Shown here in pieces: positions 25,549-64,000 of a stretch of 64,000 bases of DNA. A program made the position numbers and the translations under genes. Below the pieces are notes generated by a model. It was given only the letters and a program-made list of their open reading frames with translations, was not told the DNA's origin and did no database searches. This DNA is from Carcharhinus amblyrhynchos (Eukaryota), in NCBI GenBank assembly GCA_965287045.1, contig OZ336878.1, positions 96,968,001 to 97,032,000 on the forward strand. The letters run 5' to 3'. How positions within the stretch are numbered: position 1 is the first letter of the stretch; each line of letters begins with the position of its first letter.

Positions 25549-26746
25549 TTTTCAGAAGGCGTTTGACAAGGTACCTCACAAGAGGTTATTGCAGAAGGTC
25601 AGGGGACATGGAGTTGGGGGTAGGGTGTTAGCGTGGATAGAGGACTGGTTGTCAAATAGGAGGCAGAGAGTGGGGGTCAATGGGTGCTATTCGGATTGGC
25701 GGTTGGTGACAAGTGCAGTGCCTCAGGGGTCGGTGCTGGGGCCTCAGCTTTTTACCATTTATATAGATGATCTGGAGGAGGGAACCGAGTGTATGGTGTC
25801 GAAATTTGCTGATGACACCAAGATTGGTGGAAAGGCAAACGCAGAGGGTGTGGAGAGTCTGCAGAAGGATCCAGATAGGCTGGGCGAATGGGCCAGGAAA
25901 TGGCAAATGGAATTTAATGTTGGCAAGTGCGAGGTGGTCCACTTTGGTAGGAAGAATGGTAGGAAGGACTATTACTTACGGGGCGAAAAACTGCAGCAGG
26001 CGACGGTGCAGAGGGACCTCGGGGTCCTTGTGCATGAGTCGCAAAAACCCAGCTTGCAGGTGCAGCAGGTGGTCAGGAAGGCGAATGGGATGCTGGCCTT
26101 CATAGCGAGGGGGATTGAATATAAAAGTAGGGAGGTCTTGCTGCAACTGTACAGGGCACTGGTGAGGCCGCAGCTAGAGTACTGTGTGCAGTTTTGGGCG
26201 CCGTACTTACGCAAGGATATTTTGGCCTTGGAGGGAGTGCGGAGGAGTATTACTAGGCTGATGCCGGAGTTGAGGGGCTTGAGCTATGAGGAGAGGCTGA
26301 ATAAACTAGGCTTGTACTCGTTAGAGTTTAGAAGAATGAGGGGGGATCTCATTGAGACGTATAAGATGATGAATGGGATGGATAGGATAGAGGTGGAGAG
26401 ACTCTTCCCGCTCAGAAAGGACAGTAGGACTAGGGGGCACAGCCTCAAGATAAAGAGGGGGGGGGGGGTTTAGAACGGAGTTGAGGAAGAACTTCTTCAC
26501 TCAAAGGGTGGTGAATCTGTGGAATTCTCTGCCCGTTGAAGTGGTGGAGGCTTCCTCGCTAAATATTTTTAAGACGCGGGTTGATGGGTTTTTGATAAGA
26601 GAGGGGATTAAGGGTTATGGGGAGAGGGCGGGAATGTGGAACTGAGCCACGACAAATCAGCCATGATCTTATTGAATGGCGGGGCAGTCTCGAAGGGCCA
26701 GATGGCTTACTCCTGCTCCTATTTCTTATGTTCTATGTTCTTATGT
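25549..26746 (+). mobile_element. 5'-truncated CR1/HER1-like LINE (RT C-terminal half and 3' UTR)
   Basis: ORF 25589-26473 with (D)FQKAFD, VPQGSVLGP, KFADDTK, LVRPQLEYCVQFW; (ttctatg)-type tail; TSD-like gtaagc at 25522-25527 and 26745-26750. Confidence 0.95.
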
Positions 26747-46407: not shown

Positions 46408-47563
46408 AAGAACATAAGAACATAAGACATAGGAGCAGGAGTAGGCCATCTGGCCCTTCGAGCCTGCGCCGCCATTCAATAAGATCATGGCTGATCTGTC
46501 GTGGCTCAGTTCCACTTTCCCGCCCTCGCCCCATAACCCTTAATCCCCTCTCTTATCAAAAACCCATCAACCCGCTTCTTGAAAATATTTAGCGAGGCAG
46601 CCTCCACCACTTCAACGGGTAGAGACTTCCAGAGATTCACCACCCTTTGAGTGAAGAAGTTCCTCCTCAACTCCGTTCTAAAACGCCCCCCCCCCCCTTT
46701 ATCTTGAGGCTGTGCCCCCTAGTCCTGCTGTCTTTTTTGAGCGGGAAGAGTCTCTCCACCTCTATCCTATCCATCCCATTCATCATCTTATACGTCTCAA
46801 TGAGACCTCCCCTCATTCTTCTAAACGCCAACGAGTACAAGCCTAGTTTATTCAGCCTCTCCTCATAGCTCAACCCCCTCAACTCCGGTATCAGCCTAGT
46901 AAACCTCCTCTGCACTCCCTCCAGGGCCAAAATATCTTTGCGCAGGTGCGGCGCCCAAAACTGCACACAGTACTCCAGCTGCGGCCTCACCAATGCCCTA
47001 TACAGCTGCAGCAAGACCTCCCTACTTTTATATTCAATCCCCTTCGCTATGAAGGCCAGCATCCCATTCGCCTTCCTGACCACCTGCTGCACCTGCAAGC
47101 TGGGTTTTTGCGACTCATGCACAAGGACCCCGAGGTCCCTCTGCACCGTCGCCTGCTGCAGTTTTTCGCCCCATAAGTAATAGTCCTTCCTACCATTCTT
47201 CCTACCAAAGTGGACCACCTCACACTTGCCAACATTAAATTCCATTTGCCATTTCCTGGCCCATTCGCCCAGCCTATCTAGATCCTTCTGCAGACTCTCC
47301 ACACCCTCCGCACAATTTGCCGTTCCCCCAATCTTGGTGTCATCCGCAAATTTCGACACCCTACACTCGGTTCCCTCCTCCAGATCATCTATATAAATGG
47401 TAAAAAGCTGAGGCCCCAGCACCGACCCCTGGGGCACTCCACTAGTCACCATCCGCCAATCCGAATAGCACCCGTTGACCCCTACTCTCTGACTCCTATT
47501 TGACAACCAATCCTCTATCCACGCTAACACCCTACCCCCAACTCCAAGTGCCATGACCTTCTC
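46408..47563 (-). mobile_element. 5'-truncated CR1/HER1-like LINE (young subfamily)
   Basis: ORF 46667-47617 RT motifs SGVPQGSVLGP and KFADDTK; tail aacataagaacataag; near-identical to the 25549 copy. Confidence 0.95.
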
Positions 47564-47897
47564 GAGTGAATTGAGTGAAGAGTTAATGTGTTGTCGAGAA
47601 TCGAGTGGATCAGACAAATAATATGGTTTGGAAGTGAATCAAAGTTGGTGAATTATCTGCTAAATGTTAGCAGTGTTTCCAGTTTCCCTGGCAACGCGCC
47701 ACATGCCTAGCGGCTTAATTTCCTTTCTTGATTTTTTTTCCCTCACACAACAGGATGCTTTATATTTTCACACACACACACACACGCACACACTTCAATA
47801 TTCATTTTCTGAACATTCTGAAGCTTTCTTTCGCATGACGTTAAACCTCTTCTAAATCTCCCATTTCCTGACATTAGATTTATTTTTGTCATTCAGT

Positions 47898-50980: not shown

Positions 50981-51780
50981 AAGAATGGTAGGAAGGACTA
51001 TTACTTACGTGGCGAAAAACTGCAGCAGGCGACGGTGCAGAGGGACCTCGGGGTCCTTGTGCATGAGTCGCAAAAACCCAGCTTGCAGGTGCAGCAGGTG
51101 GTCAGGAAGGCGAATGGGATGCTGGCCTTCATAGCGAGGGGGATTGAATATAAAAGTAGGGAGGTCTTGCTGCAGCTGTATAGGGCATTGGTGAGGCCGC
51201 AGCTGGAGTACTGTGTGCAGTTTTGGGCGCCGCACCTGCGCAAGGATATTTTGGCCCTGGAGGGAGTGCAGAGGAGGTTTACTAGGCTGATACCGGAGTT
51301 GAGGGGATTGAGCTATGAGGAGAGGCTGAATAAACTAGGCTTGTACTCGTTAGAGTTTAGAAGAATGAGGGGAGATCTCATTGAGACGTATAAGATGATG
51401 AATGGGATGGATAGGATAGAGGTGGAGAGACTCTTCCCGCTCAAAAAAGACAGTAGGACTAGGGGGCACAGCCTCAAGATAAAGGGGAGGCGGTTTAGAA
51501 CGGAGTTGAGGAGGAACTTCTTCACTCAAAGGGTGGTGAATCTCTGGAATTCTCTGCCCGTTGAAGTGGTGGAGGCTGCCTCGCTAAATATTTTTAAGAA
51601 GCGGGTCGATGGGTTCTTGATAAGCGAGGGGATTAAGGGTTATGGGGAGAGGGCGGGAAAGTGGAACTGAGCCACAACAGATCAGCCATGATCTTATTGA
51701 ATGGCGGGGCAGGCTCGAAGGGCTAGATGGCCTACTCCTGCTCCTATTTCTTATGTTCTTATGTTATGTTCTTATGTTCT
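50981..51780 (+). mobile_element. 5'-truncated CR1/HER1-like LINE (young subfamily, intact C-terminal frame)
   Basis: ORF 51035-51670 RDLGVLVH...FFTQRVVNLWNSLP...GERAGKWN; tail (ttcttatg)n. Confidence 0.95.
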
Positions 51781-53029: not shown

Positions 53030-53089
53030 TGCTGTGATTTGCATTCGAGCCTTGGCTGCTGCGGATTACTAACAACTATACGATAATGG
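53030..53089 (-). pseudogene. tRNA-His pseudogene with anticodon arm deletion
   Basis: gctgcgg joined directly to tactaacaactatacgat. Confidence 0.55.
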
Positions 53090-53936
53090 GGTCACTCATG
53101 GCTTTCTGCTGTTATTCGTTCCTAAGTAAACCATACGTCCAATGAAGGACAGCGCCCTCCCTCTCGACCAGGTTATTACAGGGGACCAGTTTCAGCTTTC
53201 ATTCCGTTGGCTGCTGACTGAAAATCTGTATCAATAATGACCCGTTCAGATGGAAACTCATTTTCTACCTCGCCACCCATCCTTCCAGAATTGTTCAGAA
53301 CATCTAGCATGTTTTGTCGCCTGCGCATGTGACGCATGGATTTTTTTTTCTGGCCATCAGTTACTTCAAGGCATAGAAGTGTTCGGAGTGATAAATGCAT
53401 TTTACAATCATTTGTCTTAGTGGTGCAATTAAAGGTCATGGGCAAGACTTGGATGATCCCCGCCTCACCAGCAAGGCATCGTCACATATCTTCCAGCTTT
53501 ATTTGCACGAACTATCTAAATACAGTGAACGTTCGAAATCTAAACGAAAAGCAAAAGCTCCTGAGGTAGACTGAAAACCAGGAAGCAGTTTTCAAAAGAG
53601 GGACAGATTTCAGGACGATCTGAAAACGAAGTTAACTGCCGCCAAAGGCAGTAAGCCTTTGGTTTCATTAAGGAATCAGGTTTGGATTTGTCTGTGATTT
53701 TAGCGGGAATGAATTAATCACCAATCATCATATCACCTATAGCAACAAGTTCTCAAATTCAAGACTGTTCTGAAAAAGAAAGAAAGGATGGGACAGAAAA
53801 CAATGAACAACTGGTCATTTAGAACAAATTTTGTACAGGAAAAATATTCGTAACCATTATTAAGAGATGTTATAGCAAGCACTAGGGAAAGTTCAAGGTT
53901 ATCTTTTGTGAAAGGGAAAACATTTTTGCTAAAAAA

Positions 53937-54850
53937 GTACCAGCCCTGTCTTTGTATCGCCTGGTGCGCAGGATTCAATCCGTCACGATGTAATTGGAGG
54001 AAGGCTGGGTTATTCGATCGATATTAGGCATGCCGTTATCTGCAAGGAAAGCTTCGAACTTCCTGTTCGCATATTCTTGGGCTCCTTCTCCTCTTTTCGG
54101 GTGATCCCCACGATGGCATTCCAATTTACGGGGATTTGACCTAGGGTATCAGTTACGTCAGCCTTACAAGTCAGGAAGTCTTGCTTCTGATGGTGGGCGT
54201 TTGCACACCAAGTTCCACCCTAGTGGGCAGCCTGCAATCGCAGCCAGTAATTTTCAGGCATTTTTGTTCTAATTAGCCTCGAATACCCCAATTATGAAGG
54301 TGATGGCAGATTCTTTGAGTTTCTGCCAGAAAACTGCGTTACCACTGTGATGCTTTAATACAGGCAATTTATCCAGCAATGCCATAATCTCCCCAGGGGA
54401 TAGGGAGATATATGTCATCCTCATTTTAGGTGACTATTCCCCGTATTCTCTGTTGGGCAGAAATCGCTGGATGTATCCAATCTTCACAGGGGCAGCTGTA
54501 ATCTGAGTTTCTAGGTCATAAGGTGGCGGGACGTCCCCGTCCCTCCCTAAACCTTGACTGAGCATCTATAACGTCTTGGTTGTCCAATTTACATCCTCGA
54601 TATAGACAGAGAGCTCGGGATTTGTTCCATGAGTGTTGGCAACATCGTCTGTGCTGTCATAACTGGCAGTTGTTGATTTCTACTGTTAACATACGCATTT
54701 ACCTTTTCTGTCAGAACTACATGGGCACAAAGTATTAAAGCTAATGCCTTTTCATCCTGTTCTTTCTTTTCGCCTTCCACACTCCCTCTGATTTTCTGGG
54801 GGATCTTGGGGCTTCCAACTTGATTTGATTATTTTGTCAATAACTGTCAT
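53937..54850 (-). pseudogene. gag: Retroviral gag remnant (stops and frameshifts; 3' truncated)
   Basis: Manual translation: VPPPYD late domain (54518-54529), TYISLSPGEIMALLDKLP, MHR-like IPVNWNAIVGIT..RGEGAQEYANRKFEAF, FLQLHRDGL. Confidence 0.75.
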
Positions 54851-55230
54851 TTTTTTCTCCGCGGATCACGGAGCCTTCTGGCCCCCATTTGAGCTCCCTT
54901 TCTTCACTTGTCAAGATTGGGTGGGACTAAAACTGTTAAACATCCACTTTCAGAGGTTCACGTTTACGTCCACGCTACTTGTAATGGGCACGTCTCTAGG
55001 TTAACTGTCTGTCACACGCCAGTTACTTATTTTAACACAGTAAACAATTCCTGACAATGCCTGCGTTCCTCAACGAACTACCCACAGCCGTTTTGACTGT
55101 TGACTAGACCCTATTCTCAAGTTCGGAAATTCGTCAGCCGCCGAACTTCACCCGCGTCCTGGGATAAGTCTATACGTGTAATGAGTAAATACACTCACCC
55201 AGTTCTCTGCTGGTATTGGTCGACCGAGGA

Positions 55231-55248
55231 ATCCGAGTCACAGCACCA
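55231..55248 (-). promoter_or_regulatory. Primer-binding site complementary to the tRNA-His 3' end
   Basis: + strand atccgagtcacagcacca matches the last 18 nt of mature tRNA-His including CCA (17/18 to canonical). Confidence 0.92.
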
Positions 55249-55251
55249 AAC

Positions 55252-56014
55252 TGTTAGCGGGAGAGTGTTTCAAAGAAATCACATAACGCTCAGGGTTGGC
55301 ACTCGCAGCAAACGGTTTATTTTCGCCTGCGGGGAGATAGCTTCTGTCAAACCCAGTGCCTCTCTCCGACGAACAAAGGAAAAATATACATTCTTATACA
55401 TTTTTCAAACACCTACACCGTCCATCGCGGCTGGACCTTGTCCAATTATATTGATTACAGATTGCATACTGCAGTCACATATTCAATGAAGAATGTATTA
55501 TGTTAGAAGGGCTTGTGCATGATCAGCTCGTGGTCTCGTGTACACGACTCTTGGTACCTCATCAATATTATCTTCCTTTCTCCCATCTGGAGTCCTTGAG
55601 TGTACAATACTCCTTGTCCAGTAGGCCTCCTTATCATCTCCCATGACTATCCTCCCTAGTCCTCCGTGTCTGGTTTTCACCCAAGACCTCAGATCGTAAA
55701 CTGGTACCAATCAATAGTCCCTGTGGTCTATTGTGCACAAGTTTGTACTCAAGGCAGCTAGTAGTGTTCAGGAATGTGGCTAGCATCCATCTTGCGTCAT
55801 TTTATTATCCTGAGTTCCTGTTATCATGTTGGAGTTTTCATGCATGTCCTTTGTGATTGTATAACGATAAATTCATACACGTTTATTATATATTATTCAT
55901 TCCTGCCAATATAAATTGGTATGCAGGTACCATTTCATATAAATAGCTGTGCAGGCGCCTCCACCAAGGATATTGTTCCGTCTAAACCTACTCCTTAAAT
56001 CTGTGTCTTCAACA
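55252..56014 (-). repeat. Retroviral 5' LTR (outer boundary uncertain)
   Basis: TGTT...AACA termini candidate; minus-strand AATAAA at 55316-55321 and TATAA at about 55394-55398. Confidence 0.6.
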
Positions 56015-57169
56015 CCTGGTTACAGAAGACGCTTCAGTAAGGGTCAAATTGGATGTCCCCAAAGGGTCACTGCCAAGCTGAATATACAAGCGTTCCTGCA
56101 TCCGTGGTCATATCTATACTGCGTCTGGGCAGTGACGGAACCTTTTCATTATCTTGCAAAATGTGTTCCCTCATTAGAATTTCCAGATTTGAATTCTGCT
56201 AGTGAATATATTTCCAGGCATTTGGCTTTAAACTTTTTACCGTTCCCAAAGCGTCTTTCATAATTTGCATTGGTCAAATTGTCCATTCACAGAAAGACGT
56301 CTGGCATACATTTGGAATATCAATTTGTATGTTTTGAAATCATGGCAACTTGTTTATTCTTCTTGCTGCATCTACATGTAAGTATTTTATCATTTAAGTA
56401 TTTGCTGTTAGCTCTGTCAGTACCTATGCGCCATCCTAAACCAAAGATAAATGTAAAATAATCGCTTTCATGCGTTATGTTAATTCTGAAGGTTTTTCAC
56501 AGGACCCAAAAGCTCTTCTAAATATCTCATTTTCCATCACTATATTTATTGATTCAATCATTTGTCATTCAGTTCACTCGCACAATTTCACAGATAAGTT
56601 TTCAGACCAATGCTCTGTAATGCTAAGTGAACAATCGAGTTATATTTGCAAAATACATGTTGGTTGGCACTCGGATGTTTTCAGCTAGTGCTCATGAGCA
56701 CCAGCTGAAAACGTCTGAGTGCAAAATCAACATCCATTTTGCTAGTATAACTCAATTGTTCACTTAGCATTACAGTAAAGACGGGTGGTGGAAATCATCT
56801 CAAATGAAAAAAAAGATTTTGTGGAACCTTTGACTCAAAACGTCAACTCGATTTCTTTCTCCACAGATGTCGACAGACCGTAATGCTGTTGCAGGAATTT
56901 GTACTTTAACGTCAATTTACAATACTAGTTCCTAGTAAAATGTTGCACCGTCATTACGTCAAGGCCCTTCCAGCAATTTGACCGTGCTGACTCAGAAACA
57001 TCGAGATATCCCAGTTCAAATAGTTCAAAGCACATGGTGCGAAACGCTTCCGTGCAGCGCCAGAAACAGAGATGCCAACCAACAAACTCCACGGTGTTAC
57101 CGAAGTGTGAGATCATGCAGTCACAAGTAAATGAGGATAGAATGATAGGAGCGAAGTAAAGGGGCAAGA

Positions 57170-58030: not shown

Positions 58031-58104
58031 TGCCGGAACCGCTATTCGAATTGAGTTTGCAGAGACGACAAGGACAGAATACTAACCCACCAGAACATTA
58101 CGGA
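58031..58104 (-). pseudogene. tRNA-His pseudogene (very decayed)
   Basis: tgccgg...attcgaa...cagaatactaaccc at the unit position. Confidence 0.4.
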
Positions 58105-58849: not shown

Positions 58850-60190
58850 GAAATTAAAATCATCACAAATCGTCATGTCATCCACACCATCCCGCTCTCA
58901 AATTCATAAAAATGCGAGGAAGGCAGAAAGCAGAAAAGAGCAGATTACTTCGCCTAAAGTCTGCAACGGGAATATGTTAGCAACTAATATTTTAAAATGT
59001 CACAGAATGGAAAGTTCAAGGATATCACGCCTTTCATGAAACGGAACATTTGTTTGATTAATTTATGGGAGGCACATTTGCTTTGAATTAGGAAAGCTGA
59101 TGGATGACCTGTCCTCAGATTTCGAGGAGCCAGGAGCCAACTTGTCGCTGAAAATGCAGTGCCTTGGTGTAGCCGATAACATATTGACCTGGATTGAAGG
59201 TTAGCTAATTAAGCAAAAGCAGTTTTATATATGGCTGACATGATGTGGCCAGCCGTATGGCATATAAATCAACAAGCTTTGTCTTAACATTTTGTCACTT
59301 ATGTTAATGACTTGGTGGAATCGGCTGAAGCTGTGCCTATTCGGTTTGCTCACGAAGCAAAGCTAGGTAGGAAAGTAAGGTGTGAAGAGAACATAAAGGA
59401 TAACACGTTACATGGATGTGCAAAAATCTGGCAAACGGAGTATAATGTGCACAAATCTGTAATGATCCATTATGGAAGGAAGAAAATTAAAGATGATTAT
59501 ACTGTAAGTACCGAGGATGTTCCGTAGCCTGAGTGGCAGATTGATCTGAGTGTCTTCGTGCAGGCATTATAAGAAGCTAATGTGTGGATACAGCAAATAA
59601 TCCTGAAGCGAATAATATGCTCATTGGAATCAGAATTGTTTCCGAATGTAGGGATGTAGAGCCTCAGTTTCAAAGGGGCTATTGTGTAAAGGAACGGTTG
59701 GTTAAATTAAAGAAAGTGTGCATTCTTTAGAATTAGTTCAGTGAAAGTTTTTCAGACTAAGTCCTGGAAAGGGCTGATTTATCGCTGGTAAAGGTGGAGA
59801 GTTTTAATTTAAATCCAGTTCAGTTTAGAAGTCTAAGAGTCGACTTCATCAAAACCGTTAAGATCTTGAGAGGTTTTGACAGGCTGGACACGGAGAGGAG
59901 GGTTCCTTCTGCCGGACAATCTGGGTCGATCGCTTCCTTTTTGAAAATAAGTGGCCGATCATTTAATAAGGATGTGAGGAGATTGTTCATCCTTCAGAGG
60001 ATCGTCAGTCTCTGGAAGGCATATATCAAAGATAGAGCTACAAAAATCCTTGTTATAAGAGAGAGTGAAATGATATCTGGGATAGCCTGGAATGTGGGGT
60101 TGAAGTTACAATCTGATCAGAGTTAACCTCAGTGAAATTCGGAGCGGCGTCAAGCGGCTGGCTTTGCCCAGTGCTCGTAATTCTTATGTT
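58850..60190 (+). mobile_element. Old decayed CR1-like LINE (paralog of 35580)
   Basis: ORFs 59312 (RFAHEAKLGRKV..WQTEYNV) and 59794 (FRSLRVDFIKTVKILRGFDRLD). Confidence 0.75.
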
Positions 60191-60718: not shown

Positions 60719-60790
60719 TGTCGTGACTCGGATTCGAACGGAGGTTACTGTGGCCACAACGCAGAGTACTAACTACTATACGATCACGGC
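60719..60790 (-). tRNA. tRNA-His(GTG), probably impaired
   Basis: 72-nt match with 5 substitutions (G18, T-stem, anticodon stem, acceptor stem). Confidence 0.6.
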
Positions 60791-61214
60791 GCTACACATT
60801 AACTGCTATAGCAACGACTTCATGTTTCAACCTATACTTTCAACCAGGCCGTCAACAGAAAAACAACTCTCTGGAAAACAACAAAAGCAGAAAATCTGGA
60901 AAATAGCAGCAGGTCTGCCAGTTTCTGAGAGAGATCATTTCGCGTCCTGATCTCCCTTCGTCTCTCCGTGCATCATTCGGTCAGCGTCGGCAAACAAGCA
61001 TATTTCTGTTCTAAGTTCCGATATTTTCTAAAGCAACTTTCTGTTTGTTAAAATAAAGCAGAGTTACCAAAGCTTTTTTTTGGTTGGCTGGAAGTTACCT
61101 TTAATGTACTATAGGGAATAGCGCTGGGGCCTCAACATATGGCAATTGATATTACTGTCTTTGCGTGGTGGCGGTGGTGCGGGCTGGGGGTGCAGGTACG
61201 TGGGATGTTCTCCA

Positions 61215-61384
61215 CGGGAGTAACTATGACTAATTGTTTTGAGGTGAGACCTCTCACTGAGAGCGATCGGTGATATTTGCCGTTGTGATCGTTTTGGCGT
61301 ACTTTTAGCGATCAGAGCGCTAGTTCTGCCTCCTCGGGCCCCGCTGGTAACCTTGGTGCTTTAGGGCCGACGGCTAAATGACCA
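61215..61384 (+). ncRNA. HDV-like self-cleaving ribozyme of the R2 5' UTR (degenerate)
   Basis: P3/L3 gcc-tcctcg-ggc, P1' cccgct, P1.1 gg, P4 ccttggt/gccga(c)gg, J4/2 ctaa (C61374), P2 tagttct/atgacca (5 of 7 pairs). Confidence 0.7.
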
Positions 61385-64000
61385 CTCAGAAAAACTACGT
61401 ATTGGGTGATCTGGCGAGATCTGCGAAAAAAATGAGTGTTTTGCCTAGAAGGCAGGTGACCGGATGGGTTGCGAACCGGACAAACAACAACCCCGCAGAT
61501 GAGTCCGTAACCGCTCTCTGTGAAAAGTTAAAAATGCTAGGTTACACAGTAACTAACTCAAAAGAATTAGTAACAAGATCAGTCTCGACCCAGACGGAAG
61601 GGATGATCTTGAGACGAAATCAACCCGCTGGGCACTATTGAGTGATAGACTCGGGTCCTAGGCCAGAGGAACTTGTCGTCCCAATATGTGCAGAGGAATT
61701 GGCGGTTGTAGATGAGCCGGCTTGGACTGCCCATCCAGCCGAGGAGGTTGAGGTAACTGCTTGTACCTTCTACATCAAGGCCTACCAAACCCAAATTAAA
61801 GGAACAGGAACGATGGCTAACATCGCCAATACCGCAAACAATGGAGGTGCCCAGGATGAAGCCACCTTCATTGAGAAGTAATAATTGAACCATCACAAGA
61901 CCGCTCAGAGGTTAAGGAGGTGGTGATCCACTATCTCACTGATGCGTTGTATTGCAAGCCCTGTAATACCATACTCCCCACGGTTGGTGCGTTTAGAGAC
62001 CACCTCAAAACAGTGTACAAAACCAAGAACATTAAGGCCAAATGTTCTTGATGTGGTAAGTATGGGGAGTTCCACTCTATTGCCTGCCACTACCCGAAAT
62101 GTCAGGGTGAGGGTCGATCCTTGATAGTTGGGCAATATCAGTGCAGTGCTTGTGAGTTGGCCTTCACAACAGAGAATGGACTCAGCCAACACGAGAGACA
62201 CGGTCATCCAGTTCTTCACAATGAGAAACGCGCGAAGAAAGCACTGCCTAAAACCACAACCAAATGGGGTAAAAACATGAGTGTATGGTCCGAGGAGGAG
62301 GAATCACTCCTCAAAGAGCTTGAAAAGAGATTTGCTGGTGCCTGGTTTATAAATAAAGAGATTGCCAGTATTTTAACATCTAAAACTGGCAAGCAAATCT
62401 CAGATAAGCGCAGGTTGCTTGCAATTGCATGCAAAACAGCAAACACTGCAACACGGGCAGATGTTGATGTACATCCGGATTCCGAGCAAGAACAGGAACC
62501 GGAAGAGGCAGATGTCGGGAGCCCAGCCCCGCATGTAAGTATCGCTGGTAAACCTCCGGACCGAGTCCCTAAGTATAGGGACGTGGATGAACACCTGATC
62601 CAGGTGGAGGAGCTCCTGAATGCAAGGAATGATCCCGACAAACATGTCTTAGCAGTGGGTATAGTCGAGAGCATCACTGACCTTCTGATGGACGATGAGA
62701 CAAACAGGCAAAGAAAGAACGGTCTGACGGCAAAGGTACCTAAGAAAGGCACTCGGAAGGTAAGGCACGAGGTCAACAGCGGAGCCAGAAAGTGATGGGC
62801 AAAACAGAAATCCGTTTTCAGAGCAACTCAGCTGCTCTAGAAGAACAACAGGCGCCAGCTGGCCCGTCAAATCACGGGCATGCCGTCACAAATCACTTGT
62901 CCACTATCCATAACTGAACTGGAGGCAAGCTTTTGGGAGAAACTCTCCAGCCAGAACAATAAGGCAAATATAAGCAAAAACACACCATACAGCGGGCAAA
63001 CGGATAAGGGTGAGTTGATGAAGCCGATCACCACAGAAGAGGTTATCCAAGCCATCTAGGGTACTAAGGAGGCAAGTGCACCTGGACCAGATGGTCAAAA
63101 GTTGGAAGACATCCGAGACATCCATGAGGCATATGAGACCCGTATATCTCGCCTCTTCACTCTGTGGTTGGCCTCGAGAACAATCCCGAACTGTATGAAA
63201 CAGAGTTGGACAGTCCTTATCCCAAAGTGCCAGGATAAGGAACGGCTGAAAAGCATTGACAACTGGTGTCCAAATACGATCGGCCCAATGCTGCTACTAC
63301 GCCTCTTTGCCAAGATCACGGCGAAGAGACTGAGTGAGATAGTCGAAATAAACCCATGGCAGAAAGGGTTTTTAGCAGCAACTCCCGGATGCAACGAGAA
63401 CTTCGCAGTGTTGCAAAACATCATGAAGGGAACTAAGAAAAATCACAAGGACCTGGCCATTGTTTTTGTGGACCTGGCAAAAGCGTTCGACTCGGTGGGG
63501 CACAAGCTGGTCATCAGGTCATTACAAAGAACAAAGCTACCAAACGCCTTTGTAGAGCTTATTCAGGACCTCTGCACTGGCAACACAACGGTGGTCGAGG
63601 GCACAAAGTCCAAGACCGCCCCAGTAAACATTGAGAGGGGTGTCAAGCAGGGAGACCCGCTCTCTCCAATATTATTCAACATTCAAATGGATCCACTGAT
63701 ATGTAGTCTCGAAGAGGCGAGATCTGGTGTCAGCATGACGCTAGATGGAGCAAGAGTCAACTGCTCAGCCCTTGCATTTGCGGATGACATTGCCCTGCTT
63801 AGTGATTCATACGTCGGGATGACCCGTAACCTGAAGATTCTCCAGTCTTTTTGCGACTCGACAGGTCTGGCTGTCAGCACCAGCAAGACCAAAGGCTTCC
63901 ACTTTACCTGTAAGAGGAAGACCTTCATATACAATCAATGCAAGAACTGGCAGATTCGGAAGGAAGATATTGCATACATCCCCCCAGGAGAGGCTGAGAA
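61378..64000 (+). pseudogene. R2 ORF (ZnF x3, Myb, reverse transcriptase) with in-frame stops and one frameshift
   Basis: CKPC..DHLKTV(Y), CS*C..CHYPKC, CSAC..HERHGH, Myb WSEEEE..NKEIA..KTGKQISDKRR; RT SAPGPDG, DLAKAFD, GVKQGDPLSP, AFADD (63774-63788). Confidence 0.92.

Follow-up and report, generated by a model that had tools for sequence, protein, structure and literature searches.

Structure of the retroviral fragment

The 64-kb stretch of DNA analysed here (the window) carries a piece of an endogenous retrovirus (ERV) on its minus strand, within an array of tRNA-His copies. Its 763-bp 5′ LTR runs from TG at 56014 to CA at 55252, with a TATA-like box near 55398 and an AATAAA near 55321 on the same strand, and belongs to a family with at least 53 other independent insertions, in other copies of which the TG/CA termini recur. 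Three nucleotides (GTT) beyond the LTR lies an 18-nt primer binding site (PBS; 55231–55248, minus strand) matching 17 of 18 positions of the reverse complement of the tRNA-His 3′ end plus CCA, the single mismatch falling at a CpG. This was the sole minus-strand site of the window with fewer than four mismatches. The LTR–PBS junction was repeated, with one to three PBS mismatches, at seven other loci (L007, L008, L015, L022, L041, L043 and L056), so the junction in the window is not a chance match. Genome-wide, a degenerate His-PBS pattern gave 42 matches versus 10 for a control. The arrangement proposed in the initial annotation, an LTR end in CA, 3 nt and an 18-nt tRNA-His PBS, was thereby borne out.

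The PBS is followed by a 5′ leader (54927–55230, minus strand) with a putative splice-donor-like site at 55199, and then by a decayed, frameshifted gag (53930–54926, minus strand) that extends from the N-terminal part to the C-terminal part of capsid and is cut off before the zinc knuckles. By tblastn it aligned to the gag frame of a better-preserved relative, L061, in six segments and three frames (E 5e-44, 40–70% identity), and the alignment contains two in-frame stops. A PPPY, which we take to be late-domain-like, lies at 54518–54529 (minus strand); ten other copies were readable there and an eleventh was gapped. None of the ten has an exact PPPY and seven differ from it by one residue. The stretch at about 54047–54094 (minus strand), presumably MHR-like, falls within a segment 68% identical to L061 gag. 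No gag family was found by Pfam search of the three window gag frames and the family's internal frames, and a PDB sequence search with a gag piece gave no match. The decayed gag with PPPY and MHR-like motif that had been read from the sequence is confirmed by homology to L061. An ATG-GGG at 54888 was rejected as a myristoylated gag start, the L061-homologous frame there being a different one.

ERV homology stops near 53930, where array-spacer homology picks up; the two overlap by a few bases at the deletion junction (53926–53933, no strand). Gag is the only gene part present, and pro, pol, env and the 3′ LTR are lacking. The element is thus a truncated 5′ piece, about the front quarter, and not a whole provirus. 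Without a 3′ end no target duplication can be read at this copy, and without a second LTR it cannot be dated from an LTR pair. Neither an empty site nor a target duplication was found among paralogs, which match the left flank to 53928 and leave the right flank unmatched. No second copy of the element was present within the window; the array has not copied it.

The tRNA-His array and cluster

Thirty-eight tRNA-His-like copies, all on the minus strand, were detected by nhmmer in the window (1032–60790), of which 13 were called as tRNA-His genes by ARAGORN and 11 by Rfam; most are therefore remnants. The initial annotation had counted roughly 37 same-strand tRNA-His genes, a figure that fits the number and strand of the copies and exceeds the 11–13 that score as genes. 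The array is part of a cluster at about C9:96.96–97.78 Mb (C9 being the contig of the window, which covers its positions 96,968,001–97,032,000). As 32 of 41 genome-wide His pattern matches fall in these 0.82 Mb, this is the main tRNA-His cluster. Both orientations occur elsewhere in it, and the common strand of element and array is a coin toss. CCA is absent from the tRNA-His gene sequences in the window.

The two tRNA-His copies that flank the element are the weakest remnants of the window. The one on the truncated side (53031–53088, minus strand) scored 16 bits with no gene call, and the one on the integration side (58032–58092, minus strand; 10 bits, E 0.055) lies 2.0 kb from the LTR end. 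The nearest called tRNA-His gene (60719–60790, minus strand) is 4.7 kb from the LTR. The description of an ERV inside a tRNA-His array thus holds for its position within the main cluster, with the amendment that it is a truncated piece between the weakest remnants. Spacers adjoining the element are at most 66–72% like their paralogs, versus 82–88% in the array core. The window LTR differs from sister LTRs by K2P 0.16–0.28. Since the adjoining spacers are diverged, the flanking tRNA copies weakest and the element single, it probably entered a part of the array that was no longer being homogenised.

Other features were observed in the array. A 162-bp near-palindrome at 56615–56775 is 86% self-complementary and built of array-spacer sequence. 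Young CR1-like LINE pieces, 93–98% alike, occur at 25589–26746, 46411–47638 and 50981–51777, and an older CR1-like piece lies at about 59150–59960.

The ERV family elsewhere in the genome

An LTR search of the 2.92-Gb assembly gave 41 matches from the 40 scored among 109 candidates; matches other than the window copy were 73–85% identical to it. A 22-nt LTR motif gave 58 matches genome-wide versus 3 for a control, and the LTR was present in 16 of 20 newly fetched motif loci, with three motif matches left unfetched. With duplicates collapsed, at least 53 independent insertions besides the window copy were obtained on 23 contigs, mostly solo LTRs. Among twelve solo LTRs with clean ends, an exact 5-bp duplication was seen in three and an exact 4-bp duplication in one; a 5-bp duplication with one mismatch was seen by eye in four more, and none was clear in the remaining four. 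A PPT precedes the 3′ LTR in L013, L026 and L030. Gag, pro, RT, RNase H, integrase and env follow in order behind a window-type LTR in L031 and the adjacent L045, and Pfam confirmed retroviral domains in the relatives L061 and L072. The lineage has an RT with tether and a retroviral RNase H, the RT being nearer to retroviral than to Ty3/Gypsy sequences. Among named sequences, the closest to the gag and env of the family come from Mustelus, Chiloscyllium, Heterodontus and Pristiophorus, which makes a shark host likely.

LTR pairs diverged by K2P 0.104 (L007, 685 bp), 0.13–0.17 (L015, two short pieces), 0.21 (L031/L045) and 0.24 (L022). At a mammalian rate of 2.2e-9 per site per year (PMC4422223) the age of the youngest pair comes to about 24 million years, and would be greater at shark rates.

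In L007, L022 and L043 pol is deleted and about 1 kb of A-rich sequence stands in its place; L031/L045 and L008/L046 keep pro and pol. The shared deletion suggests a non-autonomous subfamily. Seven further loci (L049–L055) form a sister family that shares the gag end and the deleted-pol segment but differs in the 5′ part. Their fetched stretches gave no His PBS, the nearest approach being one 4-mismatch site in L052. Two of the seven (L049 and L050) lie on C9, at 96.83 and 97.45 Mb. These were considered as the lost half of the window copy and rejected: the sister family occupies seven loci on six contigs, its matches begin at one base, and its members share an upstream sequence of their own.

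Near-identical gag-like matches occur by the dozen, tens of kb apart, over the whole of contig C48, at C13:74.9–75.5 Mb and at C16:64.70–64.78 Mb; these are ERV gag pieces amplified inside large tandem repeats. A Mustelus gene model (P0001) opens with about 85 residues of the family gag, with 81% identity to the L007 piece across 40% of it, and continues as a host protein with PF23283 domains. This fusion is either an exonisation or an annotation artefact.

Retroviral affinity of the lineage

The RT score was highest for MLV-type structures (220 bits; foamy virus 124, Ty3 91), and the order was repeated for a family copy. In a midpoint-rooted tree of 68 RT pieces (10 of 76 matches, redundant or partial, were skipped), built without named epsilon, snakehead or foamy reference sequences, the lineage fell among shark and cyprinid proteins and apart from those that bear Gag_p30; no Gag_p30 match was found in the lineage gag. 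In L061, pro follows the gag stop and is in frame with gag. This arrangement and the MLV-like RT are as in epsilon-type viruses. Use of a tRNA-His primer is shared with the epsilonretroviruses (WDSV, WEHV-1 and WEHV-2) and clade Mu ERVs. Such priming is not exclusive to epsilonretroviruses, as HERV-H uses tRNA-His too. The walleye retroviruses prime with histidyl-tRNA (PMC3185748). Judged by sequence, the lineage resembles fish epsilon-like ERVs, and the likeness drawn in the initial annotation holds at this level of resemblance; genus membership is not established. Among the Callorhinchus milii ERVs, CmiERV lineages II and III are epsilon-like and lineage I is snakehead-like (PMC4422223). As published, lineages I–III compare with the present one in being old chondrichthyan ERVs with pol and env; primer and tRNA-gene neighbourhood go unmentioned in the available text of PMC4422223.

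The lineage env was located at L007 1200–3200 (minus strand) and L061 8272–9998 (plus strand), together with the database protein P0007, and has homologs named from sharks and frogs. Neither Pfam, PF00523 included, nor a PDB sequence and profile search placed this Env: the former assigned no family to P0007, and the latter returned nothing better than E 0.2. A model was built from the homolog P0007 (pLDDT 66, pTM 0.34). Its predicted fold matched the F proteins of hMPV, measles virus and RSV, and foamy Env (E 4e-7 to 1e-5, TM-score about 0.2). Foldseek also matched it to models of the WEHV-1 and WDSV Env (E 1e-5 and 4e-4, TM-scores 0.14–0.17); other F-type proteins reach equal or higher scores with it. 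VIA-align of the model gave a middling best Z of 6.2 (rmsd 23.8, 271 aligned), crowded by coiled coils. An F-type fold is thus predicted for the lineage Env.

Lokiretrovirus Env is related to paramyxovirus and pneumovirus F and has an RXKR site (PMC7947760); the lineage shares the similarity to Mononegavirales F, by predicted fold only. Lokiretrovirus RT is sister to that of all sampled retroviruses (PMC7947760), whereas the lineage RT is far nearer to MLV than to foamy virus or Ty3. These RT scores, obtained without a loki reference, argue against a loki placement of the lineage. The main text of PMC7947760 contains neither the word shark nor the word cartilaginous. A limited literature search found no paper on an epsilon Env with an F-like fold, which does not imply absence from print. 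A shark and frog Env family that lacks a Pfam match and is predicted to be F-type, like foamy, loki and (by Foldseek) walleye Env, bears on the origin of retroviral envelopes, and may be of more use than the main result.

Placement of the family relative to tRNA genes

The other insertions were examined for neighbouring tRNA genes in fetched stretches with flanks of about 4.5 kb per side for most loci (for L007, L022 and L041 at least one side had less than 0.7 kb). Neither an ARAGORN tRNA gene nor an nhmmer tRNA-His remnant was present at any of the 53 other independent insertions, which puts the proportion of copies near a tRNA gene at no more than about 5.5% (95% upper bound). Taken by itself, ARAGORN is a weak control, since the nearest called gene to the window copy is 4.7 kb away and the program would miss the window copy itself at equal flank; remnants of other tRNA types are therefore weakly tested. 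For tRNA-His this gap is closed by nhmmer, which reported matches down to about 15 bits and would catch the 20- and 16-bit neighbours of the window copy. Relaxed ARAGORN on the first 40 loci made 1, 14 and 63 calls at 95, 90 and 85%; the calls were of mixed tRNA types and were judged noise.

Within the His cluster the window copy stands alone, both among the 58 LTR-motif matches and among the 42 His-PBS motifs. A further 18 stretches taken from the cluster and next to it, of which 17 contain His copies, yielded neither a family LTR nor a retroviral protein. An Rfam tRNA search of the genome, in which 63 candidates were scored and which is not a map, gave further tRNA clusters on C13, C39 and C27; no family LTR lies near these among the matches listed.

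Insertions related to the window copy are clumped around it. Three lie within 0.5 Mb (0.02 expected; P about 2e-6 versus uniform placement) and seven within 10 Mb (0.42 expected). The nearest three comprise one solo LTR, seen as L021 and its 94% duplicate L025, and the sister-family insertions L049 and L050. L021/L025 and L049 lie among rhodopsin-family GPCR genes and L050 beside C2H2 zinc-finger genes; no tRNA gene was called in their stretches or adjacent ones. L050 falls inside the His cluster span, about 19 kb from the nearest His remnant. The family is clumped off C9 too, with four pairs within 1 Mb versus one expected (P 0.017).

In the interval C9:96.7–97.9 Mb (L145–L164), arrays of rhodopsin-family GPCR genes, C2H2 zinc-finger genes, pairs of tRNA-Glu/Asp and tRNA-His arrays form a mosaic, and another retroviral pol remnant lies at C9:97.40 Mb (L160). 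The idea of a generally tRNA-rich distal C9 was rejected, 0 of 20 spaced samples of C9:89–109 Mb having a tRNA gene.

Origin of the locus

The element is best read, with a probability of about 0.82, as the truncated 5′ end of an old dispersed ERV that landed, with no tRNA-specific targeting, in the already decaying edge of a tRNA-His array and is inert. The match between its primer and its neighbourhood is likely a coincidence, because tRNA genes are lacking next to its relatives at other genomic sites. Were copies placed uniformly, one of 54–109 would fall in the 0.82-Mb cluster with a chance of only 1.5–3%; so small a value means that the case for coincidence depends on regional density and on how many pairs of family and array a scan takes in. 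At the rate of distal C9 the chance rises to about 20%, for a region chosen post hoc. On this reading the virus would have primed reverse transcription with tRNA-His from the general pool of the cell and integrated by its ordinary integrase. A later deletion or unequal exchange would have fused gag to array spacer and removed the remainder, and the copy would have been tolerated in a 1-Mb domain that, being pieced together from duplicated arrays of tRNA, zinc-finger and GPCR genes, accumulates insertions.

The initial annotation had raised a more specific link, in which the lineage prefers the tRNA gene clusters of its own primer, as Ty3 does Pol III start sites. The low uniform chance of one copy in the main tRNA-His cluster is what speaks for such primer-matched integration. 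Ty3-type targeting acts at a short, fixed distance from Pol III genes, and most Ty1 and Ty3 copies are so placed. The window copy resembles these in being an LTR element among Pol III genes, but only 1 of 54 copies here is near tRNA sequence and no fixed position is seen. Ty1 and Ty3 integrate at Pol III genes or a short way upstream of them (PMC4041453), whereas the integration end in the window lies on the downstream side, 2.0 kb from the 10-bit remnant and 4.7 kb from a called gene. The enrichment of LTR copies near tRNA genes that had been set as a test beforehand was absent from the 53 sampled insertions, none of the seven other His-PBS-bearing loci is near a tRNA gene, and the two nearby sister-family insertions have no His PBS in their fetched stretches. 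Primer-matched targeting is scarcely credible and is contradicted by the sampled copies. The annotation had also proposed the array as a linked source of primer or tRNA fragments (tRFs), and the two could have been kept together for a role such as tRF-His target, source of piRNAs or regulatory LTR. Consistent with this, the fragment is fixed across related organisms with LTR, PBS and leader kept, and its one PBS mismatch is the low end of the family's range; but a single mismatch is found too in L007, which is distant from any tRNA gene, gag is broken, and ERV pieces differ from those of other organisms about as much (1.8–3.8%) as flank pieces do (2.4–4.3%; short pieces, with 40 of 342 differences listed), so that there is no sign of constraint. 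CCA-bearing 18-nt 3′ tRFs block ERV reverse transcription by sequence-dependent binding to the PBS (PMC7515703). As CCA is not encoded in the genes, such fragments come from mature tRNA and reach any His-primed copy; acting by sequence, they would confer no advantage on linkage to the array. Co-option of the pair is accordingly very unlikely.

A broader preference, in which the virus favoured chromatin domains of clustered Pol III and other tandem genes regardless of primer, draws on the one result that leans towards the initial annotation, the clustering of related insertions at the 0.5-Mb scale. To this may be added the excess within 10 Mb, the second pol remnant at C9:97.40 Mb, and gag relatives at 1–2.5 Mb from the C13 tRNA cluster in both directions. 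LTR enrichment is seen at human tRNA clusters as well, and a Pol III-linked bias was raised for them as conceivable, and not tested (PMC4041453). ERV pieces lie in and around the clusters at 1q23.3 and 6p22 (LTR share 38% at 1q23.3, and 13.28% versus 8.05% at 6p22; PMC4041453), a regional enrichment as seen here; there, however, every one of the repeat units contains an LTR fragment, whereas the window element is single and unamplified, and the available text reports no primer match. Against a domain-level preference, the neighbouring insertions sit in GPCR and zinc-finger arrays with no tRNA gene called there or adjacent, so that the clumping marks a gene-cluster domain and not tRNA genes or the primer; the 20 distal C9 samples lacked tRNA genes, and no family LTR is listed near the C13, C39 or C27 clusters. 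Retention and segmental duplication explain the clumps equally well, as the L021/L025 duplicate illustrates, and integration and retention cannot be told apart as causes from such old copies. We consider a domain-level preference unlikely. Its stronger form is quite improbable: a shark retrovirus lineage with F-type Env that prefers tRNA, zinc-finger and GPCR cluster domains, as a vertebrate, domain-scale counterpart of Ty1/Ty3. Its trace would be the four related insertions in 0.7 Mb, one of them His-primed inside the array. If true, domain-level targeting would give a vertebrate retrovirus with a Pol III-linked integration bias.

On the preferred reading this is an ordinary ERV fossil, lying in a domain of multigene clusters where insertions gather. 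Both junctions of the element, the truncation point and the outer LTR end, were bridged by contigs from four public runs (two of which, X2 and X3, are one sample) covering three related organisms and three studies, with 1.8–4.2% difference. As both are common to the three organisms, insertion and deletion predate their split. The fossil thus marks an insertion common to related sharks and matters little as it stands; it also shows how a match of primer and neighbourhood can arise in the absence of targeting.

An R2-like element in the array

A full-length, decayed R2-like element lies in array spacer 5 kb from the ERV (61215–64000 of the window and 1 to about 1600 of L039, plus strand). Zinc finger, Myb and RT domains were found by domain search, and CCHC and endonuclease-like motifs by eye. 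Array-spacer homology to L057 ends at 61214, one base before the element, whose first 17 nt equal the 28S rDNA sequence immediately upstream of the R2 site. With the CR1 pieces, this element indicates that the window takes insertions freely. On contig C201 the 28S 17-mer falls within an Rfam LSU match, recurring about every 40 kb. A second dispersed R2 copy with a 28S leader was found on C1 (L123; 66–72% alike), and L121 and L122 share another sequence behind the leader. Sharks are known to carry R2 (PMC5035012, PMC13188248), and with 39 genome matches in all, ectopic R2-type insertions with 28S leaders may be common in this genome.
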